From: a virus
Reading direction: 5' to 3' (one strand)
IMG/VR virus record: IMGVR_UViG_3300045988_146774
Span: 32,001 to 96,000 of that record
DNA: 64,000 bases
Shown here one piece after another: positions 31,847 through 52,989 of the stretch. The translations under genes were made by a program, and so were the position numbers. Numbering within the stretch: the stretch's first letter is position 1; every line of letters starts with the position of its first letter. A model generated the notes under the pieces. That model made no database searches, had not been told where the DNA came from, and worked only from the letters and a program-made list of their open reading frames with translations.

Positions 31847-32203
31847 ATGAGTACAAAAAATAATAGAACGTGCTGCATTTGTCGAAAGATATACTCGTAC
31901 TGTCCAGTATGCAATTCAGAAGATTATAACAAACCTACATGGTATTTTATTTTCCATGATGAGAATTGTAAAAAAATCTATGAAGTTTGTACAGATTATA
32001 GAGATAAAAAAATTTCTCCAAAAGAAGCATTTGATAAATTATCAAAGCTAGATCTTTCTGATTTAGATAATTTTGAAAAAGTTACAAAGAAACAGATCGA
32101 AGAGATTTTTAACTCTCAAAAATCTGCCACAAAAAACACTGCATCAAAAAAGTCAAAAATTGATACCAGTGCAGCAAAAGAAAATAATAAGCCAGTAAAT
32201 TAA
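31847..32203 (+). CDS. zinc-ribbon hypothetical protein
   Basis: 118 aa. CCICRK...CPVC and ...HDENC motifs. Confidence 0.5.
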   Translation: MSTKNNRTCCICRKIYSYCPVCNSEDYNKPTWYFIFHDENCKKIYEVCTDYRDKKISPKEAFDKLSKLDLSDLDNFEKVTKKQIEEIFNSQKSATKNTASKKSKIDTSAAKENNKPVN

Positions 32204-36054: not shown

Positions 36055-37983
36055 TTGGCACAAGACGTATTAGATTTTAAAGTCAATATAGAAACAGAGA
36101 ATGCTGCTACTAAAATGGAAACTCTTGGTACTATGTATGACGAAATCAAAAATAAAATGGAGAAAGATAAAATTACTCCACAAATTGATTTATCGAAGGT
36201 CAAATCACAAGTCAAAGAGGTTCAAAATTTATTTTCAAATGCTGGAAAAGGCTCTGGCAAAAAGATAGATCTTTCTAATTTATTTACGGTTGATCCAAAA
36301 TCTTTTGATAAGGCAATGAGTTCTTTCTTCTCAAAAATGGATAAACAAATGAAGAGTCGTGCTTCCAAAGTAAGTAAAGATCAATCTGATCTTGCTAAAT
36401 TAATGGCAGCTGACAAAGCAAGTTCTTATCCGTATGCAGATGAGTTAAATGCCAAGAATCAAAAGCTTCTGAGACAATATTCTCGGCAAAATGTTTCCGG
36501 AGAAGATAGGAAGAATTTAGAGACTGCCATGAATCTTCAAGCACAAGTAGAGACATATCAGAAGCGAATGGCAAAAAGTATTTCGGATAATAATTTAGAA
36601 GCTGCAATTGCCGATTATGATAAATGGGCTTCATCTGTTGAGCAGTTAAATTCCGTATTGTCCATTCTTGGTAATACAATGGAAAAATCATTAGATACTT
36701 CTGCTGTTGATACCGCTATTTCTAAAGTCGAAAAATATAGAGACAGTCTGAAGAATGTTAGTGATGAGCAAAATAAAATGCTTGATAAAGTTACCAATAT
36801 GTACAATCAAGAAGGACTGACTCGAAGTGAAAAAATCAATGCGGACAAAGAGTTTCAGCAAGTTAAAAATGAGATCGCACATCAGAATAAATTAGCTGAA
36901 ATTCAAAGGGAAGCTTATTCTGGTAAATATTCTCTCACTTCTGCTAAGGCAGATACTTTCTTATCCAGATACAATGGACAAAGCTCTGAAGTTTTAAATA
37001 GAGCAAGGGCTGAGTTGGCTGAATATAAGAAAATATCTGAAGAGGTTGTTGCTCTATCTGATAAGAAGATTAAGGGAGAATTAATTGATACTTCCGGACT
37101 TGAAGAAAGTAAAGTTAAATTAGAAGAATGTGGCGAACGAATGAAGAATGTTCTCGAAGAAGTTCGTGTCGCTGAAAGTAAAACTCTTGATCCAAAGATA
37201 GCAACTTCTTCTGCTAACAGCGTTCAGAAGTATATGAATGACAATACAAAAGCTTTAAAGAAATATAAAGCTGAGTTTGAATCTGTCAGAGATATGTATA
37301 AGAACGCCACTACTGTTGGTGAAAAAAATACAGCGGATGTTGAATTTAAAAGATTGAAGTCTGCTGTTTCTGCTGAAGGATTGAATGGAAAAGGCTTATT
37401 CGGAAACTTAAGACAATCTTTTTCACAGTTATCTAAATTCAGCGGTGTTTGGGCTATGGCTCAAGGTGCTGTTGTTGATATTCCGAGACAAATTATGTCT
37501 GCTGTGACAGAAATTAATTCTGCACAGATTGAATTGAGAAAAGTTAGCAGTGCATCTGATAGTCAGTTGTCACAGTATTGGAATCAAGCTGCGGAAAGTG
37601 CCAAAAAATATGGTGCTACTGTTAGTGATGTTATTAGTAGCACTGCGGATTGGTCAAAACAGGGATATGGTCTAGATGATGCTAAGAAACTTTCTGATAT
37701 CACAACCTTGTATCAGAAAGTTGGAGACAATATGACGCAAGAAACTGCTTCGCAGAGTTTGGTTTCTACATTACAAGGTTTTAATATGCAAGCTGATCAA
37801 GCTGAATCTATTGTTGATAAGTCCAATGAGGTGGCAAACAATTATGCAATAGGATCAGATGGTATTGGAGAAGCTTTGCAGAGAAGTGCTGCATCATTTA
37901 ATGCTGCACACACAGATATTTCAAAGTCAATTGCTTTGATTACTGGAACCAATACAACACTTCAAGACCCGCAACGTGTCGGT
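36055..37983 (+). CDS. tape measure protein, exon 1
   Basis: TTG start after TAGGAGGTGA. Coiled-coil N-terminus, then a TP901-type TMP core (...AQIELRKVSS...GSDGIGEALQRSAA...LQDPQRVG). The frame degenerates into junk plus a stop after 37983. Confidence 0.75.
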
Positions 37984-38151
37984 TGTAAACATATTGCCGA
38001 CTATTACAGTAATGTAATAAAAATAAAAGTGGCTATATCGGTTAATGTCCAGAAGTGGACAAGACCGAGGAAAGACTTGTATATTTTCGAAGCATATCAA
38101 TTAGGAAGGGTATGCTTTTATTAATTATAAAATTAAAATTAAGGAGATAAA

Positions 38152-39075
38152 ATGCCAAGAAAAGGTAGTAAAACTGGATATACGATAAAATGTGAAAATT
38201 GTGGAAAAGAAATATATCAAACAAAAACTCAGTACAATAGAGCAAAGCATCATTTTTGTAGTAATAAATGTCAAAAGGATTTTCAACATAGACAACTATA
38301 TGAAAATAGAAAATGTCCGATATGTGGCTCCTTATTTGAAATAAGCAAGAAATCAAAACAAAAATTTTGTTCAACTAAATGTCAGAATGAATGGCAGAAA
38401 ACAAATACTGGTGAAAATAATGTTAGATTTAAAGGTTCTATCTGTAATTGCGATTGGTGTAATAAAAGGATAACAATTGGAAAGTCAAATATGGAAAGAT
38501 TTTCTAATCATTTTTGTTCTAATAAATGTAGACAAGCATGGTACTCAAATATTTATTCACAAAATGATACATGGAAAGAAGAATCTAGAATTCGAGCAGT
38601 TAAACTTTTAGAAGAAAGAAAAATAGATACAAATACAAAACCACAGATTATAATAAATAACTTGCTTGATGAATTGCAAATAAATTATATAAATGAAAAA
38701 AATTTGAAATATTATTCATTAGATAATTATTTAAAAGATAATAATTTGGCAATTGAAGTTATGGGAGATTTTTGGCATACCAATCCAATTGTGTATAATG
38801 AATTCCCATCAAAAGAAATACAAATAAAGAGAATATCAAAAGATAAAGCAAAACATACATATATTAAAAAATATTTTGACTATGAAATTTTATATTTATG
38901 GGAAAGTGATATTTATAAAAACTTGAACGTATGTAAAAAATTAATACAAAAATATATAAAAGAAAATGATCATTTACAAAATTATCATTCTTTCAATTAT
39001 CATATCGAAAATAATAATCTTATTTTAAATTCAAAAATAATTTACCCATATTTTGAAAAAGAATTAGTAGCATAG
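38152..39075 (+). CDS. intron-encoded putative homing endonuclease (3 FCS-type zinc fingers plus PD-(D/E)XK / Vsr-like domain)
   Basis: 307 aa, AAGGAGA SD. Three CxxC...FCSxKC repeats. C-terminus ...LAIEVMGDFWHTNP... resembles Vsr/DUF559-type nucleases. Confidence 0.6.
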   Translation: MPRKGSKTGYTIKCENCGKEIYQTKTQYNRAKHHFCSNKCQKDFQHRQLYENRKCPICGSLFEISKKSKQKFCSTKCQNEWQKTNTGENNVRFKGSICNCDWCNKRITIGKSNMERFSNHFCSNKCRQAWYSNIYSQNDTWKEESRIRAVKLLEERKIDTNTKPQIIINNLLDELQINYINEKNLKYYSLDNYLKDNNLAIEVMGDFWHTNPIVYNEFPSKEIQIKRISKDKAKHTYIKKYFDYEILYLWESDIYKNLNVCKKLIQKYIKENDHLQNYHSFNYHIENNNLILNSKIIYPYFEKELVA

Positions 39076-39170
39076 ACTAATGCCTAATCATTTGGTTATG
39101 TGAAAAAGAAAATATACAAGAATCCGTAACGACTGTAACACTTTATATGGTAACATATAAAGTTTCGCCA

Positions 39171-39180
39171 CTCTCCTATT
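39171..39180 (+). promoter_or_regulatory. CTCTYCTATT motif copy (inside intron 1)
   Basis: Exact CTCTCCTATT. Part of hairpin TCCTAT-taat-ATAGGA between the R-like and S-like elements. Confidence 0.45.
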
Positions 39181-39344
39181 AATATAGGATGAAGATCCAG
39201 TCTGAACTGTCAATAGACACTTCTATGAATTATTTCATAGTCGCCACGCTATAACTTAATGAAACGTGGGAATTAGCCAGAAATGACTAATCGCTATATT
39301 TAATATAGTCAGTACCATCTCACAAATGGGAAAGTAACAGGAAG

Positions 39345-39954
39345 AATATGTGGAAAACGGTTAGCGCAAGATTGCGTGGTTCAGAATCTGAACTTAGTGC
39401 TATGGGTGAAGACACAGATGGTCTTGTAACCTCTACATCTAAGCTTCAGGCAAAAGTCAAAGCACTTACTGGTGGCTTTGACATTATGAAAGATAAAGAT
39501 ACATATAAAGATATCTATGATATTGTAGTTGGAATTGGTGAAGCATTTCCAAAGATGAATGACATAAATCGTGCTAGTTTGCTTGAACTTTTAGCAGGGA
39601 AAAACCAGTCAAATGCCCTCGCAGCAGCACTTCAGAACGTTGATGTGATAAAGAAGGCTTACAACACGGCTGCCAATGAATCAGAAGGATCTGCCGAAAA
39701 AGAATTTGACAATTATAAAAAATCGATCGATTATTCTATTCAAAATTTTAAGGCGCAGTTCCAATCTTTCTCATCATCCTTAGTATCATCTGACTTTGTA
39801 AAAGGAATTGTTGATAGTGGATCATCGGCACTTAATATCATTACGCAACTCATAGATAAAGTAGGCTTATTGAAAACTGCCTTCGCTACATTCGCTGGCG
39901 TAAAACTTTTCAAAAACTTAGATTTGTTTTATCTAAACTGGTCACTTCATACAT
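39345..39954 (+). CDS. tape measure protein, exon 2 (3' boundary uncertain: 39908 or 39954)
   Basis: Continues the TMP core (NMWKTVSARLRGSESEL...LLELLAGKNQSNALAAAL...). Has no SD of its own. Its frame stops at 39954-56, just before a group I core. Confidence 0.7.
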
Positions 39955-40310
39955 AAGAATATAACGAAAATGGTGTTGTAAACAAGTGTGTGTTGTTAAC
40001 GTTTTAAAATTAGGAAGATTAATTGCTGGGAAGCCTAATGCTTAATGAGCTACAACATAGTCGGAAACGGCAAGTGTGAATGCGACGAAAGTAGAAAAAA
40101 TCATTAAGATGACATATGGTGAAATAAAAGGCATCGGGAAGATGCTCCTAAGTGTCTAGTATAAGGGCAAAGGTTATAATAACCGACTAACTGATCAGCA
40201 ACGCACTGTTATAGAGAATATATAGCTGTATAGCAGGACGCTCAGAGACTACCGATCTTCGAAGTCAATATGACCTTACAGTATTGACTTATAATGTATA
40301 GTCCAAGAAA
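39955..40310 (+). ncRNA. group I intron 2 catalytic core (P, Q, R and S elements all present)
   Basis: P AATTGCTGGGAAGCC (40021-35), Q CTGATCAGCAAC (40191-202), R GCTCAGAGACTACC (40240-53, versus consensus GTTCAGAGACTACA), P8 AGTCAATA/TATTGACT, S AATGTATAGTCC (40293-304, versus AAGATATAGTCC). Candidate P1: CATACAT(39948-54) with GTGTGTG(39986-92). Confidence 0.7.
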
Positions 40311-40642
40311 CAATATATGTTTTGTTATTACATATTCAAATAAAATAACACGATGCCTTCTATCCCATCGTTATTGGCAATGGATAGAGAATAAATAACT
40401 ATAAACAATAATGGAGATTAGAAAAATATCTAATCTCCAAAATATAATATCGTGTCTCAGACCAGTCATAGTTTGAGATGCATATATTATAAGATATTTT
40501 CCGATTTCTGTAAATGGATTATGGAGAATATACAATTAGCTTACAGAAAGTGAGTGGCAATCCCCAACGGAGCTTGTGATGGCTCCGAAGGGTTTTCTTA
40601 AAAAGGAGGAAATTAATGGAATGATTCACAAATTCAAGTTAA

Positions 40643-40840
40643 TTATTTATTATGTAGTGTGAACATACTATGTGACATCATTTTAGCAATTGCCTTAGCT
40701 TTTTCATCACTGATGTCATCCTTAAAAGCGATAAGGAAAACAGCAATAATTTTAGAAATCTCATGAAGAGAAACATAAAGCATAAACGGAATCACTAAAT
40801 AGATGTTGTTTAAAAGAATTCCAAAAAATTCTTTCAACAC
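40643..40840 (-). CDS. small hydrophobic protein (cargo island)
   Basis: 65 aa with GGAGGG SD on the minus strand (the TTG at 40837 is the likelier start). Two hydrophobic segments. Lies downstream of the Spo0A-C-like gene. Confidence 0.5.
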   Translation of the reverse strand: MLKEFFGILLNNIYLVIPFMLYVSLHEISKIIAVFLIAFKDDISDEKAKAIAKMMSHSMFTLHNK

Positions 40841-41009
40841 TACCCTCCTTTCTGTAAGATTAATTATCTTATTGGAAAATCAGGCAGAATAGCCCATTAG
40901 ATTTCCATCGTGCCATTGTCTTACACTGGCACTACCACGTAAAGATATGGTTACGAAAATCCGTGGAACTAAGCATATTGTGGTCATATGCTGATTTTGT
41001 AACAAATAC

Positions 41010-41018
41010 ATTATACCA
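41010..41018 (-). promoter_or_regulatory. extended -10 element TGgTATAAT (minus strand)
   Basis: Reverse complement of ATTATACCA, about 170 nt upstream of the 40840 start. Confidence 0.35.
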
Positions 41019-41071
41019 TTTTGTCAAAATTTGGAAATCCAGAACATACATTCAGAAAATAAATTAAACGG

Positions 41072-41410
41072 CTAATTGTATAAATTTCGGATTTTATCTT
41101 TATATGCAAAAGCAAGCGCACCTAGAAATTGTGCATTTGATGGACATTTGTTTGGAATATAACCGAATATTGGTTTTAGAATATCTTTTTGTTCATTAAA
41201 AAGATGTCGCACGACTGTACGAATGTTTGATTCTACGACCATTGTAGATGTATGGAATTTCTTTGCAATGGAAGGATATATGTCTTTTGTGATAAGATAT
41301 ATCTCATCATCTTCCACTTCGTTAATTAATTCAATCGCATATTTGATATATCGGTATCCTTTGTACCTCCGACTTATGCGACAGATGAATAAAAAGTCAT
41401 CAATTTTCAT
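41072..41410 (-). CDS. stand-alone Spo0A C-terminal (DNA-binding) domain protein, no receiver domain
   Basis: About 112 aa from the ATG at 41410 (GAGGTGA SD). KGYRYIKYAIELI...ITKDIYPSIAKKFHTSTMVVESNIRTVVRHLF...FGY...PSNAQFLGALA parallels Spo0A-C (HIKGYLYLREAI...[32 protein letters not shown]...FGYT...PTNSEFIA). Confidence 0.7.
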   Translation of the reverse strand: MKIDDFLFICRISRRYKGYRYIKYAIELINEVEDDEIYLITKDIYPSIAKKFHTSTMVVESNIRTVVRHLFNEQKDILKPIFGYIPNKCPSNAQFLGALAFAYKDKIRNLYN

Positions 41411-41443
41411 ATAAATCACCTCATAAGTAAAAGATGCATTAAT

Positions 41444-41471
41444 AATATACCATATTTAGCATACATTTCAA
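41444..41471 (-). promoter_or_regulatory. sigma-A-type promoter for the Spo0A-C-like gene (TTGAAA, 16 nt spacer, TGgTATATT)
   Basis: Minus strand: -35 TTGAAA (41471-66) and extended -10 TGGTATATT (41452-44). Confidence 0.4.
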
Positions 41472-41514
41472 GATGTGACGTGCTAAGATTGTGTTAAGAT
41501 ATTAGTGTTAAATG

Positions 41515-41521
41515 TGTCGAA
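41515..41521 (+). promoter_or_regulatory. consensus 0A box TGTCGAA
   Basis: Exact match to the Spo0A-box consensus TGNCGAA. It lies in the 390-bp divergent region between the Spo0A-C-like gene and the TA locus. Confidence 0.3.
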
Positions 41522-41591
41522 TGGCAAAAATCACAATAAAACTATTATATTTTTGTGTATTATTTGTGTAGCATTTTCCCCATGGAACGGG

Positions 41592-41597
41592 TATAAT
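41592..41597 (+). promoter_or_regulatory. -10 box TATAAT upstream of the antitoxin-repeat RNA
   Basis: Perfect TATAAT 34 nt before the first RNA repeat. No convincing -35 seen. Confidence 0.35.
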
Positions 41598-41630
41598 ATA
41601 AGCAAGAAAACAAAAGTTTTCTTATATACG

Positions 41631-41752
41631 TTTCACAATGTACGCCAAAGAAACATTGTATTTTGAGACAAACGTACTTCGCAATGTGTACCGAATTACA
41701 TTGTATTTTGAGACAAATTCCTTTCACAATGTAGGACAAAGAAACATTGTAG
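41631..41752 (+). ncRNA. type III antitoxin-like RNA: about 2.6 tandem repeats of 44-47 nt
   Basis: Repeat 1 is 41631-41677, repeat 2 is 41678-41721, and partial repeat 3 starts at 41722. Each has an ACAATGT...ACATTGT hairpin and a shared TATTTTGAGACAAA tail. They sit directly upstream of a terminator and a ToxN-like ORF. Confidence 0.7.
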
Positions 41753-41753
41753 A

Positions 41754-41787
41754 GGAGTGGTTCTGTTTAACAGATCACTCCTTTTTT
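41754..41787 (+). terminator. rho-independent terminator between the RNA repeats and the toxin gene
   Basis: GGAGTG/CACTCC stem followed by T6, as in the toxIN-type architecture. Confidence 0.65.
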
Positions 41788-41803
41788 GATACATAGGAGA
41801 AAA

Positions 41804-42349
41804 ATGAAAGAACATGCTTTATATTTTGGGAAAAATGAGTATTATGAAATAATCAGAAGGAATGGTGGAACATGGAATGATTCAAAGGAAAGACCAATTG
41901 TATGTTTGATGAAATCCATAGAACACGAAAAGTTATATTGGGCTATTCCAGTTGGTAATTATTATCATAGAAATGAAGCTGCACGAGAAAGATTAGAAAA
42001 ATATCTTGGAAAAGATAAAAAGAATATACAATCTTGTTTTTATCATGTTGGAAATACAAATGAAAAATCTATTTTCTTTATAAGTGATGTTATACCTATT
42101 ACTGACAAATATATAGAACGGGAATATTTGAATAAAACAAGAAAGGTTCATGAGATAAAAAATAAAAAATTGTTAAATGAATTGGAGTATAAACTTAGTC
42201 GTATATTATCGTTTGAAAACAATAAACCAAATTATTTCCGTCAACACATTACAGACATTAAAACTTATCTGTTAGAAGAATTGAGACAGGAAGAATTACA
42301 ATCTCAAGAAGAAAACACAGAAGAACAAATCCAAGAATCAGAGCAGTAA
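41804..42349 (+). CDS. type III toxin (ToxN/AbiQ/CptN-like endoribonuclease)
   Basis: 181 aa from the ATG at 41804 (AGGAGA SD). N-terminal pattern Y-x-x-x-EYY...ERPIVCLMKS...LYWAIPVG resembles ToxN/AbiQ (RPY-hydrophobic run...Y(F)APLSS). The genomic context (repeats plus terminator) is diagnostic. Confidence 0.6.
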   Translation: MKEHALYFGKNEYYEIIRRNGGTWNDSKERPIVCLMKSIEHEKLYWAIPVGNYYHRNEAARERLEKYLGKDKKNIQSCFYHVGNTNEKSIFFISDVIPITDKYIEREYLNKTRKVHEIKNKKLLNELEYKLSRILSFENNKPNYFRQHITDIKTYLLEELRQEELQSQEENTEEQIQESEQ

Positions 42350-42365
42350 TCACACTGCTCTTTTA
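42340..42365 (+). terminator. rho-independent terminator
   Basis: AGAGCAG/CTGCTCT stem followed by TTTT, overlapping the toxin stop codon. Confidence 0.6.
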
Positions 42366-42400
42366 TTATGTCAAAAATAAAGAGTAGAGAAAATTTTACC

Positions 42401-42410
42401 CTCTTCTATT
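42401..42410 (+). promoter_or_regulatory. CTCTYCTATT motif copy (inside the cargo island)
   Basis: Exact CTCTTCTATT, 52 nt after the toxin stop. Confidence 0.45.
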
Positions 42411-42443
42411 CTACCACTTATATCCACAATCTTTACATTCAAA

Positions 42444-42720
42444 CTAACTACGTGCTGTTTTACTAAATATTCCAAGCAACCCTACTCCTACTGCTTTTGA
42501 TGCTGCGGAGATACGTTTGATATTTGTAAAATTGCATGTTGGGCAAGTTATTTGTGTGTTTGATTGTTGGCTTGAGGATTGATGTTGGGTGGATGTCGCA
42601 TTCCCTTTTACAGTACTCATTCTGTTTTCGTAGGTTTTTTCTGAAAATTGAAAACCGCCAAATTTATTAGCCAGAATACAGTAATATTACTAAATACAAT
42701 ACAATAGATTTATTTTTCAT
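42444..42720 (-). pseudogene. frameshifted fragment paralogous to the C-terminal half of CDS 43789..44325
   Basis: Minus-strand translation ...KFGGFQFSEKTYENRMSTVKGN...ITCPTCNFTNIKRISAASKAVGVGLLGIFSK... parallels ...KYGGNQFSECAYRH...VTCPYCKSTNTKKISAVSRAGSILGFGLFSK.... An upstream 17-codon ORF (ATG at 42720) is in another frame. Confidence 0.5.
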
Positions 42721-42738
42721 TTTGATATAAATAAAAAA

Positions 42739-42976
42739 AGAATAATACAATAAATAGACTCATCTCAGGTGCTAGACCACCAGGTGCATCAGTGAAATAA
42801 CGCAATTTACTATTATCTAGATGGTAAAGAACGCCAATGCTCACAAACATATTCCAGTCTACCGAAGCGGACTCTCGTATATTCGTGAACGTGTACTGGT
42901 TTCAGCACATTATACGTCATATAGCAATCACCTCCAAGATACACCCTTGAGATGAGCCTGTTTATTGTATTATTCT
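42739..42976. repeat. 29-bp inverted repeats (27/29 match) flanking a 180-bp segment
   Basis: Left arm 42739-42767 (AGAATAATACAATAAATAGACTCATCTCA) and right arm 42948-42976 (TGAGATGAGCCTGTTTATTGTATTATTCT). Confidence 0.6.
42813..42920 (-). CDS. 35-aa micro-ORF with strong SD, enclosed by the inverted repeats
   Basis: GGAGGTG SD 8 nt before the ATG. Peptide MTYNVLKPVHVHEYTRVRFGRLEYVCEHWRSLPSR. Below the ORF-track size cutoff. Confidence 0.35.
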   Translation of the reverse strand: MTYNVLKPVHVHEYTRVRFGRLEYVCEHWRSLPSR

Positions 42977-42984
42977 ATATTATT

Positions 42985-43677
42985 TTATTTGTTTTTATTT
43001 AATAATTTTTCTGCTTTTTCAAGTTCATATTTATTATGTATAGAACTTATTAATGCCTTTAAGAAACTTTTCATTTGCTCTATGTCGTATTCGGGATGTT
43101 TCACCATGTAATGTGTTTCGTCGTTTCCAAGCCACGTGGCTGCATTCGCTAATTTTTGTATAGGTTCAAATTCGATTTTTTGGCAACATTTTTCCAATCG
43201 GCATTCTCCAATAGCTTCTTTGGTTAGATTTTGTTCTTGTTGTAAATAGTCTTTCACAAGAAATTCAAGAGCTTTTCTGTAACCTGTGCCGGCTATTGTA
43301 AGCAAACCTTGTCTTTCACATTCACACGCCTCAGAAAATATTTTTGTAAAATCTGGATATTTGTCTTTAATATCTTGAGGAATTGAACTTTCTTCAATCT
43401 CTTTCGGATATGGATATCTAACATCTTTTTCAACATTTTTCAAACTACTTTTCATGTGATATAGAGATACATAATATTGTTTACAATTTGTACAATACCA
43501 AACTGCAAATAAAAGAGGCTTCTCCTTTTCATTGAAAGATCTAATTAAACATCCGTTTGCATATTCTGGTTTTCCAGACTTATGACATATTGGACATGTT
43601 GGTTCGATTTCTACAGAACTTGAAACTTTCGCATTTTCAATTTGTTTCGAATCAAATAATTTTATATCAACATTCAT
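42985..43677 (-). CDS. zinc-ribbon plus DUF4145-like helical domain protein
   Basis: 230 aa. CPICH...CTNC zinc ribbon. The C-terminal ...FSEACECERQGLLTIAGTGYRKALEFLVKDYL...ATWLGNDETHY... resembles DUF4145. Confidence 0.5.
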   Translation of the reverse strand: MNVDIKLFDSKQIENAKVSSSVEIEPTCPICHKSGKPEYANGCLIRSFNEKEKPLLFAVWYCTNCKQYYVSLYHMKSSLKNVEKDVRYPYPKEIEESSIPQDIKDKYPDFTKIFSEACECERQGLLTIAGTGYRKALEFLVKDYLQQEQNLTKEAIGECRLEKCCQKIEFEPIQKLANAATWLGNDETHYMVKHPEYDIEQMKSFLKALISSIHNKYELEKAEKLLNKNK

Positions 43678-43788
43678 TTATTGTCACATCCATTAACCTT
43701 ATACATAAAATTATATATTAATTGCTTTTTATTGTATATACGGAACTAATGTTTTGGTAATTTTTACCATAATTGATACATAAAGCTG

Positions 43789-44325
43789 TTAGAAATCACT
43801 ATTGCAATTGTTACAATGCCATTCTTTTCCCAATTTCTTAGAGAACAATCCAAATCCAAGGATTGATCCTGCTCTGCTTACTGCTGATATTTTTTTAGTG
43901 TTTGTAGATTTACAGTATGGGCAAGTTACCTGAGTTATGTGTTGCTGTTGGATGGACTGGTGTTGGTGGGTGGATTGATTTTTATTTTCTTGTTTTATTA
44001 AACTCAATCTATGACGATATGCACATTCAGAAAATTGATTACCGCCATATTTTTTTGAGAGAATGATATCATAATCATTTTCATTGTCCATATTGTTGAT
44101 AAAATCATTCATGGTTTCTTTTGTAATAATTGTTTTTATATTACAAAAGCGACATTTTTTGTCGGCGTTTAATTCATCGCTTGAGTATATCATTGCACAT
44201 TTTGGACAGATATAAATATAGTCATCTGCTTCTAAATTTGAACTTAAAGGGTATCCACACTGATTGCATTCTTTAGCATAATTACTAATTTCTTTCCCAC
44301 ATTCAGGACACTTTATTAATGCCAT
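43789..44325 (-). CDS. multi-zinc-ribbon protein
   Basis: ATG at 44325 with GGAGG SD (the track ORF starts at 44370). Motifs CPECG...CNQCG, CPKC...CRFC, CPYC...CNNC. Confidence 0.55.
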   Translation of the reverse strand: MALIKCPECGKEISNYAKECNQCGYPLSSNLEADDYIYICPKCAMIYSSDELNADKKCRFCNIKTIITKETMNDFINNMDNENDYDIILSKKYGGNQFSECAYRHRLSLIKQENKNQSTHQHQSIQQQHITQVTCPYCKSTNTKKISAVSRAGSILGFGLFSKKLGKEWHCNNCNSDF

Positions 44326-44360
44326 ATTATTTCCTCCGAACAATCTTATAAATTTATTTA

Positions 44361-44390
44361 AGTATATCATGAATTGTAAAAGTATGCCAA
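44361..44390 (-). promoter_or_regulatory. sigma-A-type promoter (TTGGCA, 18 nt spacer, TATACT) for the minus-strand cargo operon
   Basis: Minus strand: -35 at 44390-85 and -10 at 44366-61. It abuts the start of TMP exon 3. Confidence 0.4.
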
Positions 44391-47300
44391 TAATTTTATA
44401 TTCATTATGCAGTTTAAAGACTTAGGAAGTTTATTTGATAGTTTTGGAGAACTTAATTTTAAACATGCAAGTAAAGCCTCTTCTTTTGCGGATTTGGATG
44501 GAATAGATAAAAACACTATAAAAGGTTTGTTTAAAATAGATAACAATGATATTAGTGATTTTACAATGGCTCAAATTCAGGCAAAAGCAAGTACGATGGG
44601 ACTTACTGAGTCATTAACAGATGAATTAATGGCTATGTCAAAAGACGCTGATTTTACAGCCAAAGCAAAAGTCGGTAAAGTAACTTGGGGGGAAGCACTA
44701 AAAGAAGGTTCAACAAATGCGGATCAAATAGGGAAAGCATTAATGAAATCTTCCGATGTTTCCGATAAAGCAAAGAAAAAATTATCGGAAGTTTATGATA
44801 AATTTGGAAGTGGAAGTCAAGTATATCAAAAACAGATAGAAAATATTATAAATGGTGCAAATGGTTTAGATGATATTTCTGGTAAATTTACAACTCTTGG
44901 GGCTGATGTCCAAAAATCTACTGGAATGTTCGAATCCGCTGGTAATATTATCAAAGGATTCTTTGCATCAATAAAAGGGTATATTCCTATTCTTGCTGTT
45001 GCCGGAACAGCTTTCGCAGCGTTTAAACTTTGGGACTATTCTCAAACTGGATATACTAGAGCTAAAGAGAAAGCAGAAACTTCAGCTTCTACTTTTTCAG
45101 AAGATAAATCTAATCTCCAATCTCTTCAACAAGAACTTGATACAACAAAGAGTAAAATTGAAGAACTCAATGCTACAAAAGAACAGAATGGTGGATTGTC
45201 TCTTACTGATGAAGCGGAGTTATCTAGACTTGAACAAGAAAATGCCCAGTTGGAGCGTAAGGTCGCAATTCAGAAACAGCTCACAGAAATTTCCGCACAG
45301 GCTGCTTCAAGTGACGCTCGAAAAGCTGCCAATACTGCCCAAACATATTGGGATCATCTTAAAGAGAAAAATGGCGGAGGATTTTTTGGAACGCTAAAAT
45401 CTATTCCTGAATATTTTGCTACAAAACGTGAAGAAAAAGATGGAAAAGTTTATCTCACTAAGGAGAAAAATACTTGGGAAAAAGAAAATGGTGGTAAAGG
45501 AAATACCACTCTTGAAAATCAAACAAAAGCCAATATTAAAACGCTCAAAGATTACCAAAGTCAATTAGAAGATATTGAAACTCAACTTGGAAGTTCTGAT
45601 TTGACAAAAGGAGAAAGAAAAAGTCTCCAAAAACAGCAAAAAGAACTTAGTGAAAATATTGCTGATACAAAGCAGACTTTATCTACACAGACAGACCAAC
45701 TTCAGCAGTGGATTGATGCTTCATATGGGGCAGATGGAAAACTTGAGTCTGGAGCATCTAAATATGTAGATAATTGGAATAAAATCATTAACGATGTTAA
45801 CAATACTATCGGGCAAAAGACCAAAACACAAATTGACGCAAGTAATTTAGATACTTACTTCAACTCTTCTTCTGGTTCTGCTATGAAAGAATATTTGGAG
45901 AATATTGTTGAGGAAGGCGGATCTGCTCAAGATGCACTTGACGCATTTAGAGAGTCCGGAATGCGTCTCAAAGATATTGATGTTTCAGAAAATGGATTTC
46001 TTACATATTTTGAAGATGTAAAACGTCAGGCAGAGGAAGCAAAGCAAGCTGCGGAAGATTATTCCGCTTCTGTTTCAGATGTAGAATCTGCAACTGAATC
46101 TGCAAATCAGGACAAAGATTGGTCTACTATCCAAAGTGCTTATAAGGCTGCAAAGGAATCATTGAAAGAAGGCAAAACTGGAACCGATGATTTTCAGACT
46201 ATGGCAAAATTCCTTAACTCCAATGCGGTAAAGAAATATGCAGAGCAAGGCGGTAAATATACTGCTGATGCTTATCAGAAAGCTTTCCAAGAGGCAATGG
46301 GAACAGCCGATAGATGGTTTGGTGATGATGAAGCCACTAGTATGAAGAATTTCGTCAATGACTTCAAAAATAAAGGATTGTGGGATGTCTCTACTGACGC
46401 AATGGGTCTTTGGGATATCAAAACAAACTTTAATACAACTGCTGAAGCTGCTGACAAGTTTGGAATGAGTGTTGAATCCGTAGAAACAATGTTGCATGGT
46501 CTTGAAGCCTATGGATATGACTTTAGTGACATTATGTTTTCTGCTGAAGGTCTTGATGAATATAAGACAGCTCTTGACGGGATTAAATCTACATATGATG
46601 AAATGACGGATGGTGCTGCTAAAGATAGACTTGGATCATTGATTGATAGTTTTGAATCTGAATATGATAAATTCCAAAATGGAGATTTAAAGAATCTTAC
46701 AAAGGATCAGATTGTTAAAATTAAATTTGAGTATGATTTATCTCAAGTTGAGCAAAAAACTCAAGAGTTGATTGATCAAGCTGCAAACAGTGGCTCTAAT
46801 AATGATTTAGCCGGAGCAATAGTTTCTCAGAAAAAAGAGCGTGATTTATTAGAGGGACGGACGAAATATACAAAAGATTCTGATGAAGGGTATTCATATT
46901 CTTATGATCAGATTGATAAGCTCCAACAAAAAATGACTGGCGCAACAAAGACAGAACGAGCAGAGATTAATAAGCAAATTCTTGCATATCAAGAAATGCA
47001 AAATAATTTTCAGAAATACAGACTTGATGGTGGAGATTTAAATTGGAATGATTATTTGGATACTCCTTCTGCTACCGCTGCTTTTGATGAGATTATTAAA
47101 AAAGGTCTTATGACAAAAGACCAACTCAAAGATTTGTTTGGAGAAAAAGCAACTTATGAGATTGATGCAAAGCTCAACGACGATAATCTCCAAAGCAAAT
47201 TAAAGAAGCTTAAATCTGGTGAAAGCATTACTTTTAAAGCAGATGTTGGCGATATTGAGACTGATGTAGAGGCTGTAAAAAATGAAGACGGTACGGTAAC

Positions 47301-50300
47301 ATACACAGCAAATATTGGTGGAGTCCCAAAAGAAGTAAATAAAATTGCCGACGCTGAAGGCAAGATTCATTATACTGCTGATTTTGATGGTTCGAAGGAA
47401 TGGCTTGAGAACAATCTTAAAAAAGAAGAAACAATTACATTCAAAGCTGACGTTGCTGGGGTTACACAAGATATCCAAGCTTATAAAGACGAAGACGGTA
47501 CAATTCATTATTATAGTGTTTTAGACAATGGAACACGCAAAGAACTAGAACAACATAAAAATGAAGACGGTACAATTACCTATACTACTACTGCTGACAC
47601 TTCTGGTGTGGAAAAAGCGACCAAGAAAGCTAAGGAAAATGCTGAAAAGAATAAAATCGAATTAGAGATTACTGCAAAAGATACCAATCTTGTAGATAAA
47701 TATATACAAGAAAAACAGAAAAGTGACGCAGCGAAATCAAAACTATCAGATTCTGAAGCTGTACATGGTAATGTAGATAGTCGTGATCGTCCAATGATTT
47801 ATTGGGACAAAGAAAACCTTAAATCTAATAAATCTGCTCTTAAGAGTTGGGGGCAGAATCCAAAGGATTTAAAAGGATCTTATTCTACTGTCATGGGCGG
47901 AAGTGATGAATTTCAAGGTGTAGAAATTGCATATACTCCTGTGCTGAAGACTGGTGATGGAAAAGGTGAAGTTATCAGCAAAAACACAATGAGTAAGTAT
48001 ATTAACACTCTCATTGATCAAGCAAAATCCGCTGGTGACGGAAATTGGACTACTGAAGATTTATTAAAATTAGATTCTGAAGGTTTATTAGTCGACGGGA
48101 AGAAAATTTCTAATATGATTGCAGATGTTGGTGACACTGCCAAAGAAACCGGCGAAAAGATGCATGATATAGATGATTCTCTTTATTCCGAAGAATATGC
48201 AAAATACTGGGATGAAATTTCTGAAAAGGCTGAAAAGGCTAATATGTCCGTCGAGGATTATGTCAATACAGTTGCTTCTACTAGCGTAACATCAGATAAT
48301 CTTGTAACAAAAGATAATGGATTTGATAAAGTTGTTGAAAACGCAAAGAATGCTGTCGAGACATTAAAAGGGCTTGGTAATGAGAATCTTAAGTTAGATT
48401 TTGATTTTAAAACTACTAATCTTACAGATATAGAAAATCAAATTCAGCAAGCAAAGAGTAATCTTGATCAGTTTAAGAATGATGACGGTACTGTTAATAT
48501 GTCAATCAATGGAGCACAAGAAGCAGTTACAATTCTTGAGACATTGATTCAGCAAAAACAGCAAGCCTCTAATCCTGTAATAATGGAAGTAAGCACAAGT
48601 GGACTTGATTCCGGAGTATCTGGTGCGGTTTCAAAATTAAAGGAGTATCAAAATGCCTTAAACCAGCTTAATACTCTTAATGAATTAAAAACTGCCGGGG
48701 TACAAATTGATGATTCTCAAATATCTGATGCCGAGGATAAAGTAAATGGCTTATTTGATGAAATTCAGAAAGCTTCTGAAAAAGGTCAATTTAAAATAAA
48801 TGCCGATGTTTCTGTAGATTCATCTTCACAAGAAAAGCTACAGTCAGACCTTAAAAACATGACTCCGGAGATTAAAGCAAAAATTACTGCGGATGATTCT
48901 GACACAAAGAAAGATGGCAAGACTACTGAAGCAAAAGTAAATTACAAAAAAGGATCACAAGAAAAACCAAGTCCTAAAAATGCCAAAGTTAATTACAAAA
49001 AAGGTTCTCAGGCAAAGCCTAGTCCAAAGAACGCAAAAGTTAACTATAAAAAGGGTAGCCAGGCTAAACCAAGTCCTAAAAATGCCAAAGTTAATTACAA
49101 AAAAGGTTCTCAGGCAAAGCCGACATCTCCTAAAACAGCAACAGTTAACTATAAACTTGGTACAGTTGCAAAACCACCTGCTGTAACAGTTAAAGTTAAT
49201 TACGATACTTCTGGTGCACCTAAAGTTCTTGGAACAGCGCATGTAAAAGGATCTACTGGTGGTTTATATCCTATTCCACAATTATCAAGACGTGCACTGG
49301 CAAGCGGAACATTGTCTGATTCCTCATGGTTGAAAGATAGATGGAAAACGAAAGACTCTGAAATGGCTTTGGTTGGGGAGGTCGGACAGGAACTTGTAGT
49401 TTCTGGAAACAGATGGTACACCGTCGGTGATAATGGTGCGGAATTTGCTCATATTCCTGCCAAATCAATCGTATTCAATTCTAAGCAGACTGAAGAGCTG
49501 TTGAAAAAAGGGTTTACTAATTCTAGAGGCAAAGGCAATATATCATTACCTGGAACAGAAGCATTTGCATCTGGTACTGCTTACAGGTTAGGCAGCGGAG
49601 CCTCTTCTACTACAAATGCTAAGAAAAAAACTTCGTCTGGAACCAAATCCTACGGAACTTCAAAAGCGAAATCAAGCTCTGGTTCAAACACAAAATCCAA
49701 TTCCAATTCAAATCCTGATTCATCTGAATCAGCAGAAAAATCTGAAGAATTATTAGATTGGATTGAAACTCTGCTTTCAAGGACTTCTAGATTGACAGAG
49801 TTAGCCACAAGTGCTGTTGATCGTGCGGTCGGATTGGCTAATAAGCAGAATGCACTTGTAGATGCGGTTACAAAAACTCAGAATGAAATCACTACAAACC
49901 AAAATGCAGCGAATAAATATTTTGCTCAAGCAAATTCTCTTGGTCTTGCTCAAGGATATGTCGACAAGATTAAAAATGGTACTCTTGATATTGAATCAAT
50001 TACTGATGATAATCTTAAAGATAAAATCTCTAAGTACAAAGATTACTATGAGAAAGGCTTGTCTGCTCAAGATAAAGTCCTCGACCTTCAAGACAAACTT
50101 AATGAACTCTACCAGAAACGATTGGAAATCATAGAAAAAGAATATGATACTATCGTTGAGGTAAACGATTCATTAAAGGATATGCTTGATGCTAAAATTA
50201 GTTACAACTCTGCTTATGGCGTAGCAAATGACAATCAAGATAATATAGATAGTATCAATAAGTCTATCAAAGCACAAGAAGATACTATCAATCAGCTTAC

Positions 50301-51287
50301 TAAAAAGCTTGATGCATATCAGAAGGAAGTTAATTCTCAGATTACTTCCGGGACATTGAAGAAAGGTTCTGAAGATTATAGGTCTGCACAGAAAAATCTT
50401 AATGATTTTACGGCAAATATTTATAAAGCATCACAAGAACTTATCGAGTTACGGGATAAACTTGTACAGTTAAGAGCTGATGCAATTCAGACGATTATTG
50501 ATACGTTCAAAAGACGTTCTGATAAATTGGATAAGTATACTTCTCTTCTTGAAGCTAAAGATGAAACTGTACCAGAATCAGTATATCAGGAAAGACTGGA
50601 TAACAACAATGACACAATTCGTAAGAACCAAGAAGCCAGAGCCATTTGGCTAAAACGACAAGCAACCGAAGATGTAAATTCGGACAACTATAAGAAATAT
50701 GCTGAGGAAATCCAGAAACTTGATGAATCCACTCTTGACCTTATGAAAGACAACGAAGATTTAAAGAACTCTATCTATTCTCTCAGAATCAAAAATCTGG
50801 AAGATGCCATCAAAGGTTATGATGATTTGGAAACTGAGTTAAAAGGATTCAGAGATCTTTTAAATGACGATGCTTTCTTAGATAAAAAGGGTGGAATCAC
50901 AGATGAAGGATTGGCTCAGATTACTCTTCTCTCTCAGAGTATCGGAAATGCAAAACAGAAAATTTCTGACCTCACAACCGGACTTCAGAAAGTAAAAGAA
51001 CTTTATGATAATGGTGTTATCTCACTTAAAGAATATAACGAAAAATCTGCGGAATATCGCAAAGAACTTCAGTCTTCTACAAGTGATGTAAAATCTTATC
51101 AGAAGAGTTTGACTGATTTATATCAGAATGCTTTGAAAACAGAAGTGGATGCACTTCAAAAAGTCATAGATAAAAGAAAGTCGGCACAGACCGCCCTTGC
51201 TTCATATTACGATTTTCAAAAAAAAGTTACATCTCAAACAAATGATGTAAACAGCTTAAAAGCTCAAATTGCAGCACTCGAAGGGGT
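44387..51287 (+). CDS. tape measure protein, exon 3 (5' boundary uncertain: in-frame acceptor candidates after G44386, G44412 or G44419)
   Basis: A 2301-aa ORF with no SD before its first ATG (44407). TM segments, long coiled coils, EDGT(I/V)xY modules, 17-aa tandem repeats and the LVGEVGQELV motif. The frame degenerates after 51287. Confidence 0.75.
48931..49230 (+). repeat. in-frame 51-nt (17-aa) tandem repeats AKVNYKKGSQ(A/E)KPSPKN, 4 copies plus 2 degenerate
   Basis: Read directly from the protein (KVNYKKGSQEKPSPKNAKVNYKKGSQAKPSPKNAKVNYKKGSQAKPSPKNAKVNYKKGSQAKPTSPKTATVNYKLGTVAKPPAVTVKVNY) and from the nucleotide sequence. Confidence 0.85.
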
Positions 51288-52989
51288 AACATTATTTGCC
51301 CTATTTGTTTAATTGCTGGAACGCCCTTAGAGCTACATATACTACAACGAATACATGAAATAAGGTAAATCGTGAATGTTAAAAAATATGTAGATTGGGT
51401 AATCAGCAGCGAAATTCCGAACAGGAATACGTTCAACGACTAGGTAGGATGAGTGTACTACCGTAGGATCGCAAGCGATTGGCGATTCGAAAAATACAAA
51501 CTGTTTATTAATTAAATATAGAATTCATAAATCACGTTGAGATATACGTGATTTTTTAGTGTGCGAATTTATTTAAAGAGAATAAAAGAAATGGAGGTGA
51601 AATATGCTAGTACCTAATCAAAAAGTTGAGGTATGCTGGAATAATACAACAAAAAAACATTATATGGAATTGGGATATGAATTTACAAAAATCAGAGATA
51701 AATTTCTTGTAAATGTTGAAGATTTAACACCTCATTCCGGAGAACAAATAAGCGTAATTTGTGATTACTGTGGCAATCAAAAAATGACAACATTCAATGA
51801 TTATAATTGTTCTATTAAAAAATATCCATATAAATATTCTTGTTCAGAATGCATCCCAGTAAAACAAAAAGAAATTAGAGGAAATAAATATAAAGGAAAA
51901 TATTTTAACGTATTTGTCAATAAATGTATTGAGAATAATTGTGTTCCAATTTCAACTATTGATGATTATCAAAATGCATATTCTAAGCTATATTTTATTT
52001 GTAGTAAACACGGACAACAATGTATAACTTATAATAGCATTAAGGCTGGGTCTTGGTGTATAGAATGTGGACATGATAAAGGGGCAAAAAAGATTGCAAC
52101 GCCAATAGATAAAGTAATTAAAATAGTTGAATCAAAAAATAATAATAAAATTATTAATCCAGAAGAGTACATAAATTTTAGCACTTCTAATCTTCTTATT
52201 AGATATGGATGCTGTGGAAAAGTTTCAACTACTTCATTGAACTCGTTAGAGAATAGTGATGGTCTATGCTATGATTGTGGACAAAAGAAAGCAAAAGAAC
52301 ATATAAAATTATCTATGGAAGAAGTAACAAAACGGATAAATTCTGTTAACAATAATAAATTGTTAAATCCAAGTGAATATATTGACAATTCTACAATTAA
52401 TTTAAAGATATTATGTGGAGAATGTAATAAAAATATTTTTATAACAAGCTTGGCTAATTATGAATATAATCAAAAAATACGTTGTGGAACATGTTCTCAG
52501 AGGATAAGCGTCCCGGAAAGAACAACACGAAATATTTTAGAAAAATATGATATAAAGTATCTTCCAGAATACAAATTCAAAGATTGTAAAGACAAAAGAC
52601 CACTGCCATTTGATTTTTATCTTCCAGAATATAATATTTTAATAGAATTAGATGGGGAGCATCACTATCATCCTAAATGGGGTGATGAGCAGTTGAAATA
52701 TATTCAAAATCATGATAAAATGAAAAACGAATATTGCGAAAATAATAATATCACTTTAATTCGAATTCCATTTTGGGAGTTTGATAATCTTGAAAAAATT
52801 CTTATAGAAAAACTTAATCTTCCACAAATCGTGGACATAGAATTATCCAATGGTCGAATTTTTAAATACAAAGCACACAAACCAAAAGAATAATTAATAA
52901 ATAGAAGATATAGTCTAATCTCATATGAAAGTATGAGGAGAGTTATACTACTCTCTCACTTATGTAGCGAATAAGTGAAAAGATAAATG
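51288..52989 (+). mobile_element. group I intron 3 (with endonuclease ORF in the P8 region)
   Basis: P1: exon GGGGT(51283-87) pairs with GCCCT(51298-302). P AATTGCTGGAACGCC (51311-25), Q AATCAGCAGC (51401-10), R GTTCAACGACTAGG (51431-44), S AAGATATAGTC (52905-15), P7 GACTA/TAGTC. Ends in G52989. Joining gives ...AALEG-V-NDAATLAKKK in frame. Confidence 0.8.
51604..52893 (+). CDS. intron-encoded putative homing endonuclease (four zinc-ribbon repeats plus PD-(D/E)XK / Vsr-like domain)
   Basis: 429 aa, GGAGGTG SD. Repeated CxxC...CxxC units. C-terminus ...SVPERTTRNILEKYDIKY...FDFYLPEYNILIELDGEHHY... resembles DUF559/Vsr-type nucleases. Confidence 0.6.
   Translation: MLVPNQKVEVCWNNTTKKHYMELGYEFTKIRDKFLVNVEDLTPHSGEQISVICDYCGNQKMTTFNDYNCSIKKYPYKYSCSECIPVKQKEIRGNKYKGKYFNVFVNKCIENNCVPISTIDDYQNAYSKLYFICSKHGQQCITYNSIKAGSWCIECGHDKGAKKIATPIDKVIKIVESKNNNKIINPEEYINFSTSNLLIRYGCCGKVSTTSLNSLENSDGLCYDCGQKKAKEHIKLSMEEVTKRINSVNNNKLLNPSEYIDNSTINLKILCGECNKNIFITSLANYEYNQKIRCGTCSQRISVPERTTRNILEKYDIKYLPEYKFKDCKDKRPLPFDFYLPEYNILIELDGEHHYHPKWGDEQLKYIQNHDKMKNEYCENNNITLIRIPFWEFDNLEKILIEKLNLPQIVDIELSNGRIFKYKAHKPKE

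Follow-up and report, generated by a model that had tools for sequence, protein, structure and literature searches.

The 64,000-nucleotide stretch of viral DNA analyzed here (hereafter the window; positions 32,001 to 96,000 of IMG/VR record IMGVR_UViG_3300045988_146774) carries on its minus strand a gene whose 112-aa product is a genuine, complete C-terminal effector domain of Spo0A (Spo0A_C) without a receiver. It is a new member of a published kind, set apart by the diverged and hypervariable recognition helix of the protein together with the fixed position of its gene beside a toxin-cassette slot. We tentatively favor, at somewhat less than an even chance, a signal-independent transcription factor of the Spo0A fold that autoregulates through the repeats of its own upstream region, with a specificity shifted from that of the 0A box. 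The features on which this reading turns are as follows.

41072..41410, minus strand: Spo0A_C gene, encoding a stand-alone 112-aa protein consisting of the effector domain only (PF08769, PDB, AlphaFold, Foldseek, ribosome-binding site)
Protein residues 56-73: recognition helix of the Spo0A_C protein, reading ...TSTMVVESNIRTVVRHLF...
41444..41471, minus strand: promoter of sigma-A type that serves the Spo0A_C gene (TTGAAA, 16-nt spacer, extended -10 TGgTATATT; promoter scan)
41480..41521, minus strand: four same-orientation 8-mers, a candidate operator array

Since the GTG that opens the longest frame of the gene (41072-41419, minus strand, 115 aa) lies at 41419 within the Shine-Dalgarno sequence GAGGTG, we place the true start at the ATG at 41410, 6 nt past GAGGTG, which gives 112 aa. 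A previous inspection of the letters alone (the sequence-only reading) had taken this open reading frame (ORF) for the whole Spo0A effector domain and had proposed a profile search as a check. The Pfam Spo0A_C profile (PF08769) indeed matched significantly (E = 1.1e-20; 74 bits against a gathering score of 25), with protein residues 5-100 aligned to profile positions 3-101 of 104. The only sequence matches in the PDB were the Spo0A C-domain entries 1LQ1 (E = 7e-9) and 1FC3 (E = 1e-7). An AlphaFold model of the 112-aa protein, built with 22 sequences as input, contains seven helices at a mean predicted local distance difference test (pLDDT) value of 90.5, and a Foldseek comparison of this model with the PDB returned, at probability 1.00, only chains of 1FC3 and 1LQ1 (template modeling [TM] score 0.72-0.77, root mean square deviation 2.4-2.7 Å). 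As also proposed earlier, no phosphoacceptor receiver (REC) domain accompanies it; there is no coding room for one, the ORF being at most 115 aa, the frame closing just 5′ of the start, and the 5′ flank being promoter DNA. The Spo0A equivalog model of NCBIfam (TIGR02875) reached 43.3 bits against a cut-off of 200 and aligned over model positions 161-252 of 262 only.

To what family such a protein belongs was addressed with a HMMER search of the full library, which at E up to 0.001 retrieved 1959 clusters (50% identity). Stand-alone proteins of 105-170 aa make up most of the 150 best clusters, whereas receiver-containing Spo0A proteins appear only at about E = 1e-9. Given that the nearest relatives stand alone and that receiver-containing Spo0A is more distant, the protein is a member of a large, old, and diverse regulator family rather than a recent truncation of a host spo0A. 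It also matches the profile of PHROG 24603 (E = 3.4e-17), a group without functional annotation. Several family members carry 2-5 tandem Spo0A_C domains per chain. Two of them, P0020 (416 aa) and P0021 (849 aa), are single chains with three to five such domains, and the last domain of P0020 has a near-canonical helix; on tandem 0A boxes, chains of this kind could behave like Spo0A oligomers that are linked covalently, head to tail. Among species-representative genomes, only relatives of 34-43% identity were found, in metagenome-assembled genomes (MAGs) of Lachnospiraceae and other Clostridia, and those in Lachnospiraceae MAGs lie in ordinary chromosomal neighborhoods. At three loci from this group of MAGs (L012, L013, and L015), stand-alone Spo0A_C genes of 38-43% identity share a conserved neighborhood that does not resemble a prophage, with a 393-aa MerR-like gene and a sugar-nucleotidyltransferase gene nearby. 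From these three chromosomal settings it follows that the stand-alone family is not confined to phages.

Phage genes of this type have been described before. The passages of Schwartz et al. (2023, mBio; PMC10294663) that concern them report 29 spo0A homologues from gut viromes that encode the effector domain only and propose that these might act on sporulation independently of host signals (PMC10294663). Receiver-less phage spo0A is thus already published, and the core idea of the sequence-only reading is a rediscovery. Our literature searches found no experimental follow-up to that study.

The recognition helix departs from that of Spo0A. In 120 Spo0A clusters retrieved with the Bacillus subtilis Spo0A C-domain, the 12-residue signature of this helix is exact in 113, and 4 further clusters have one change. 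The signature positions of the phage protein read MVVESNIRTVVR, which keeps 4 of the 12 residues. The helix-turn-helix scaffold is preserved. Residues E60 and R64, equivalent to E213 and R217, are kept, as are the equivalents of T194/K195, T207, and N249; Arg214 is replaced by Ser (residue 61), and S210, R211, and H218 are replaced too. E213, R214, and R217 are reportedly the base-contacting residues of Spo0A. At the Arg214 position, other stand-alone domains have R in 117 of 175 cases (E-R-x-I-R), whereas members of the window clade show S, K, H, or P there. Within that clade, compared over 13 sequences of at least 71% identity, 15 of the 18 columns of the recognition helix vary, against 29 of 85 elsewhere in the domain (Fisher p = 1.6e-4). 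The helix that is the most conserved part of true Spo0A is the least conserved part here, and such hypervariability fits a changing DNA specificity rather than mimicry of an invariant host site. Based on the structure of the family, the divergence of the helix, and its variation within the clade, we argue that the window clade is probably not a faithful Spo0A mimic. In Clostridioides difficile Spo0A, by comparison, all DNA-contacting residues are kept and the same box is bound (PMC3485338).

Upstream of the gene, the promoter TTGAAA, 16 nt, TGgTATATT named in the sequence-only reading was recovered by the scan at 41471-41444 (10 of 12 matches plus the TG), and it is near-invariant in 13 of 14 aligned loci. 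Directly 5′ of its -35 lies the only direct-repeat cluster in the 64-kb window. Its four 8-mers read, in order on the minus strand, TTCGACAC, TTTAACAC, CTTAACAC, and CTTAGCAC, with start-to-start spacings of 9, 14, and 11 nt, and they span about -84 to -43 relative to the inferred start site; an 11-nt tandem repeat occupies 41480-41500. The window holds 14 copies of the motif TTARCAC (16.6 expected), and three of them cluster in the array. Pairs of TTARCAC lying 2-8 nt apart occur twice in the window, both in the array, against 0.0 in 50 shuffles.

The first 8-mer, TTCGACAC, holds a TGTCGAA 0A box (plus strand, 41515-41521). The sequence-only reading had singled out this perfect box in the gene's own upstream region, and the box is present at those positions; it is not enriched, with 5 copies in the window against 6.43 expected, and of the 19 related loci that retain the homologous site only 5 have it perfect. 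For the 206-bp intergenic region the expectation is about 0.02, a 2% event judged post hoc. The homologous site, about 110 nt 5′ of the start codon, is kept in 19 of 21 related loci and absent from L018 and L026. In this comparison, the perfect box (TTCGACA on the gene strand) is found in L021-L023 and L028 as in the window; the site otherwise reads TTAGACA (TGTCTAA) in L001-L006, TTTGACA (TGTCAAA) in L007-L009, L024, L025, and L027, CCCGACA (TGTCGGG) in L019 and L020, and TTTTACA (TGTAAAA) in L010. Of two loci fetched later through the CptN protein described below, L037 has a spacer identical to that of the window, and hence the perfect box, and L036 has the 6-of-7 variant TGACGAA. TGTC is thus kept in most loci with position G5 left free (C, A, or T), which would fit a reader protein that lacks Arg214. 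In Spo0A, bases G2, C4, and G5 of the 0A box are contacted, and mutation of G5 costs the C. difficile protein about 10-fold in affinity (PMC3485338).

The spacer that holds the box is common to two divergent transcription units, and the box lies at the junction between two separately mobile modules, so that the description of it as part of the gene's own upstream region needs to be qualified. The second unit is a predicted CptIN-like type III toxin-antitoxin locus (41592-42361, plus strand), which the sequence-only reading had overlooked.

41553..41570, minus strand: two TACACAA direct repeats, 11 nt apart, beside or over the -35 of the cassette promoter; the 11-nt repeat is kept in all loci
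41592..41597, plus strand: putative -10 box TATAAT of the divergent cptI/cptN promoter, read from the sequence, with a weak -35
About 41607-41626, plus strand: conserved 5′ stem-loop, 3′ of the cassette -10
41624..41751, plus strand: cptI-like antitoxin RNA (Tandem Repeats Finder and Rfam RF02920)
41751..41787, plus strand: intrinsic terminator that separates the repeat array from the toxin gene, with a run of TTTTTT after its 14-15-bp hairpin
41804..42349, plus strand: CptN-family type III toxin of 181 aa (NCBIfam CptIN, PDB 4RMO)
42340-42361, plus strand: terminator after cptN (promoter/terminator scan)

The cassette promoter was not listed by the simple promoter scan. Tandem Repeats Finder detected a 45-nt unit in 2.7 tandem copies at 41631-41751, the same unit length as the CptI repeat of Eubacterium rectale (PMC4627078). 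Over these repeats, Rfam RF02920 (Fusobacteriales-1) matched at 73.5 bits against a gathering score of 52.1. Rfam classes RF02920 as cis-regulatory; the family may in fact represent the antitoxin RNA (CptI) of type III systems, and a literature search for "Fusobacteriales-1" gave nothing. The hairpin of the intrinsic terminator folds as RNA at -18.1 kcal/mol (z = -5.05). The 181-aa protein aligned over its full length with the NCBIfam CptIN model (E = 8.7e-17), at 61 bits and under the 90-bit equivalog cut-off, and matched CptN of E. rectale in the PDB (4RMO; E = 4.3e-7), with no match in Pfam or PADLOC. It is accordingly classed as a predicted CptN homologue and not an equivalog. The exact protein occurs on 367 contigs.

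The cassette sits in a slot whose content differs among related phages. A conserved promoter block of about 100 bp (window 41522-41626), comprising the two TACACAA repeats, TATAAT, and the 5′ stem-loop, is invariant across differing cargo in the window and in L001-L010, L019-L028, and L035-L042. Behind it lie a ToxN toxin with 35-nt repeats (L010), other ToxN genes (L021 and L022), a second type of CptN of 25% identity (L027), a PBECR4 nuclease-like protein (L007-L009), an unrelated 196-aa protein (L001-L006 and L028), and other proteins in further loci. Clear antitoxin-type repeat arrays were seen only in the window and L010 among the loci compared, and the leaders of the other slot cargo had no match in Rfam. 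With at least five unrelated cargo types, the slot looks like a hotspot for promoter-equipped toxin or defense cassettes. Two loci of other phages, L040 and L041, in which the cassette is located elsewhere, carry the identical cptIN cassette without a nearby Spo0A_C gene. Its identity to the window begins at 41521, the last base of the 0A box, and the TACACAA segment belongs to the cassette module that also exists without the gene. Because the identical cassette occurs without the gene and its identity starts at this base, we conclude that the four repeats and the promoter form one module with the Spo0A_C gene (41072-41521) and that the cassette promoter is independent of the Spo0A_C protein.

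In the reading that we tentatively favor, a DNA-binding protein that lacks a receiver and would for that reason be independent of signals is transcribed from its own sigma-A promoter, in an accessory island of an SPbeta-like phage, presumably of gut Clostridia. The protein would bind head-to-tail, as Spo0A does, on the four repeats from about -84 to -43 of that promoter, the apparent 0A box being the distal member of the array, and binding would autoregulate the gene, probably positively. Activation is plausible because the array occupies positions that Spo0A uses on activated promoters and because the helix after the recognition helix, which in Spo0A contacts sigma-A, retains D76 and F82-G83-Y84. 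Specificity would be related to that for the 0A box but shifted, with TGT(C) kept and G5 no longer read, and the protein may have further targets in the phage or the host. Several observations weigh against this reading. The enrichment of ACACA-type k-mers is modest (p ~6e-4, uncorrected for the many k-mers tried), and the 100-bp module is near-invariant overall among relatives, so that conservation cannot single out the repeats. Helix types and repeat changes show no clean covariation, and linkage would explain any correlation. In addition, because most other stand-alone members keep E-R-x-I-R, 0A-like binding was probably the ancestral activity of the stand-alone family, and it may persist, weakened, in the window protein.

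Three other readings were weighed, and the four are not mutually exclusive. The protein may be a mimic of host Spo0A that binds host 0A boxes unphosphorylated and thereby switches or blocks the Spo0A regulon (sporulation, biofilm, and stationary phase) to the advantage of the phage, with TGTCGAA serving autoregulation. This is close to the earlier suggestion that a phage copy forces or blocks sporulation, of which the true effector domain, the missing receiver, and the phage location have stood; the diverged helix and the unconserved box speak against that suggestion, and the idea itself had been published. The true Spo0A_C fold would suit a mimic, and isolated Spo0A DNA-binding domains do bind real targets without phosphorylation, as the sequence-only reading had also stated (PMC3485338). 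The equivalents of E213, R217, T194/K195, T207, and N249 are retained, a perfect or 6-of-7 0A-like box lies at the conserved position near -110 in relatives, SPbeta-type phages infect endospore formers, and distant relatives of the protein occur in Lachnospiraceae. Yet only 4 of the 12 signature helix residues remain, with Arg214 changed to Ser, and no part of the protein changes faster within the clade than this helix, though a host target would be invariant. G5, worth about 10-fold in Spo0A binding (PMC3485338), is missing from the site of most relatives, and TGTCGAA is unenriched in the window. We consider mimicry of this kind possible but rather unlikely, and less likely than autoregulation through the repeats.

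The spacer might instead be a sensor of the host, in which phosphorylated host Spo0A binds the 0A-like and degenerate boxes and switches the Spo0A_C gene, the CptIN cassette, or both at stationary phase or sporulation, with the phage protein competing or cooperating. The box does lie between two divergent promoters, TGTC is kept at the same position in most loci, and real Spo0A targets are often degenerate boxes (PMC3485338). However, the perfect box is shared by only five relatives (L021-L023, L028, and L037) and straddles the module junction, the cassette promoter of L040 and L041 is 100% identical without the box site, and one box in 206 bp is a chance event of about 2%; we give this reading little credence. 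Equally improbable in our judgment is a dedicated cassette regulator, in which the divergent promoter of the slot toxin (CptIN, ToxIN, PBECR4, or others) is under negative or positive control by the Spo0A_C protein. In 27 of the 29 gene-bearing loci the gene lies next to the cassette promoter and points away from it, across at least five unrelated cargo types (L018 lacks the arrangement, and the contig of L026 is too short to show it), and the TACACAA repeats lie over the cassette promoter. But L040 and L041 carry the identical cptIN cassette, promoter and TACACAA repeats included, without the Spo0A_C gene, and the protein is thus not required for the cassette. Characterized type III systems are not known to have a protein regulator; their RNA-to-toxin ratio is presumably set by the internal terminator.

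Returning to the autoregulatory reading, a broader version of it, which we hold to be unlikely as it stands, would make the clade a set of fast-diversifying regulators of the Spo0A fold whose helix changes as in phage immunity repressors, each tied to its autoregulatory repeats, and which mark a fixed cassette-swap slot (CptIN, ToxIN, PBECR4, and others) in SPbeta-like gut phages. Should this protein, or the Spo0A of the host, act at the spacer common to both units, abortive infection encoded by the prophage would be coupled to the Spo0A state of the host; no such link of sporulation control with phage defense is known to have been described.

Downstream of the Spo0A_C gene lies a separate unit on the same strand.

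40643..41037, minus strand: separate downstream unit with a promoter, a structured leader, and a 65-aa hydrophobic ORF
41037-41010, minus strand: promoter of this unit (TTTCCA, 16 nt, TGgTATAAT; promoter scan), conserved
41010-40841, minus strand: structured leader (about 170 nt); the ribosome-binding site of the 65-aa ORF is paired in its last hairpin
40840-40643, minus strand: 65-aa hydrophobic protein (hydropathy)

The leader is unusually stable (minimum free energy -51.6 kcal/mol, z = -4.29), and across two sequence variants 5 of its 39 pairs have both sides changed in a compensatory manner; no Rfam family matched this RNA. A small protein with two transmembrane segments had been announced downstream. 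The 65-aa ORF exists, with one clear hydrophobic span at about residues 5-24 and a second, short one at about 29-40, so that two transmembrane segments are plausible and not certain. Transcription from a promoter-like site on the plus strand (40625-40653) would enter the 3′ end of this ORF in antisense. The unit may encode a type I toxin-antitoxin pair, or its leader may be a cis-regulatory RNA of a new kind. Elsewhere in the island, the minus strand encodes a 230-aa zinc-ribbon and DUF4145 protein (42985-43677; E = 4e-38 to PHROG 1305, which is annotated "DNA binding protein") and a protein of 193 aa with a double zinc ribbon (43789-44370), both of which recur in related islands.

The Spo0A_C gene and these neighbors belong to a 4.4-kb island (about 40000-44400), in which most genes run against the direction of the tail genes and which is flanked by tape-measure pieces and a 2301-aa ORF (44407-51312).

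19405-21180: large terminase, a phage marker
36055-38124 and 39348-39956, plus strand: tape-measure pieces, phage markers

The terminase is 46-47% identical to those of phages SPbeta, phi3T, and Goe11-14, and Pfam families specific to SPbeta (YomU, YomV, YomW, and YonG) occur on related contigs; the replicon is an SPbeta-like phage. The window also contains four tRNAs. Homologues came from metagenome assemblies that include a Hadza gut sample, and one IMG/VR contig measures 122 kb. A nucleotide search with the island against 50,697 phage records gave no match, and a protein search of the phage records found only five unannotated human fecal phage contigs at 32-39% identity. The tape-measure region (36055-39956, plus strand) consists of a 689-aa piece with PhageMin_Tail, a 307-aa ORF (38152-39075) for an HNH or treble-clef endonuclease, and a piece of 202 aa that aligns with the central part of tape-measure profiles. 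Relatives divide this region otherwise, with 649 aa in L001, pieces of 399, 238, and 253 aa in L004, and a NUMOD1 ORF in L007, which suggests insertions of homing endonucleases or introns.

If a phage Spo0A_C protein truly bound host 0A boxes, phages could override the sporulation decision in gut Clostridia, and this would affect the persistence and transmission of spore formers. An annotation as "spo0A" is insufficient, since the residues that read the 0A box are those changed here, and at least the window clade is best treated as a regulator of the Spo0A fold. With a single protein of 112 aa, four repeats in a promoter of 100 bp, and helix variants that occur naturally, the locus offers a compact test system, and the cassette slot gathers type III toxin-antitoxin systems in temperate gut phages.

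Compared with Spo0A of B. subtilis (1LQ1 and 1FC3), the phage protein has the same six-helix C-terminal helix-turn-helix fold (TM score 0.72-0.77) and keeps the equivalents of G172, T194/K195, Y198/P199, E213, R217, F236-G237-Y238, and P247/N249. The direct-repeat sites 5′ of its sigma-A promoter also resemble the layout of Spo0A-activated promoters. In contrast to Spo0A, it has no receiver, is about 30% identical, scores 43 bits against the 200-bit equivalog cut-off, and reads MVVESNIRTVVR where the signature helix is near-invariant, with Arg214 as Ser. The stand-alone and tandem Spo0A_C proteins of Clostridia (PHROG 24603) resemble it in size and domain, the nearest relatives outside the clade being 35-46% identical; most of them keep E-R-x-I-R and some have 2-5 domains, whereas the window clade has S/K/H/P. 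The divergent cassette shares with CptIN of E. rectale (4RMO) the order of 45-nt tandem RNA repeats, terminator, and CptN-like toxin gene. It differs in its distant toxin, which lies below the equivalog cut-off, in having 2.7 repeats, and in being phage-borne in a cassette slot beside a Spo0A_C gene. With the genes of Schwartz et al. 2023, as these are described in the passages of that paper cited above, the window gene has in common the Spo0A_C domain alone, the lack of a receiver, an origin in gut phage genomes, and the same functional proposal. Recognition-helix divergence, target sites, and genomic context are not dealt with in those passages, whereas here the helix is diverged and hypervariable and, in an SPbeta-like tail-gene region, the gene is the fixed partner of a slot for swappable toxin cassettes.

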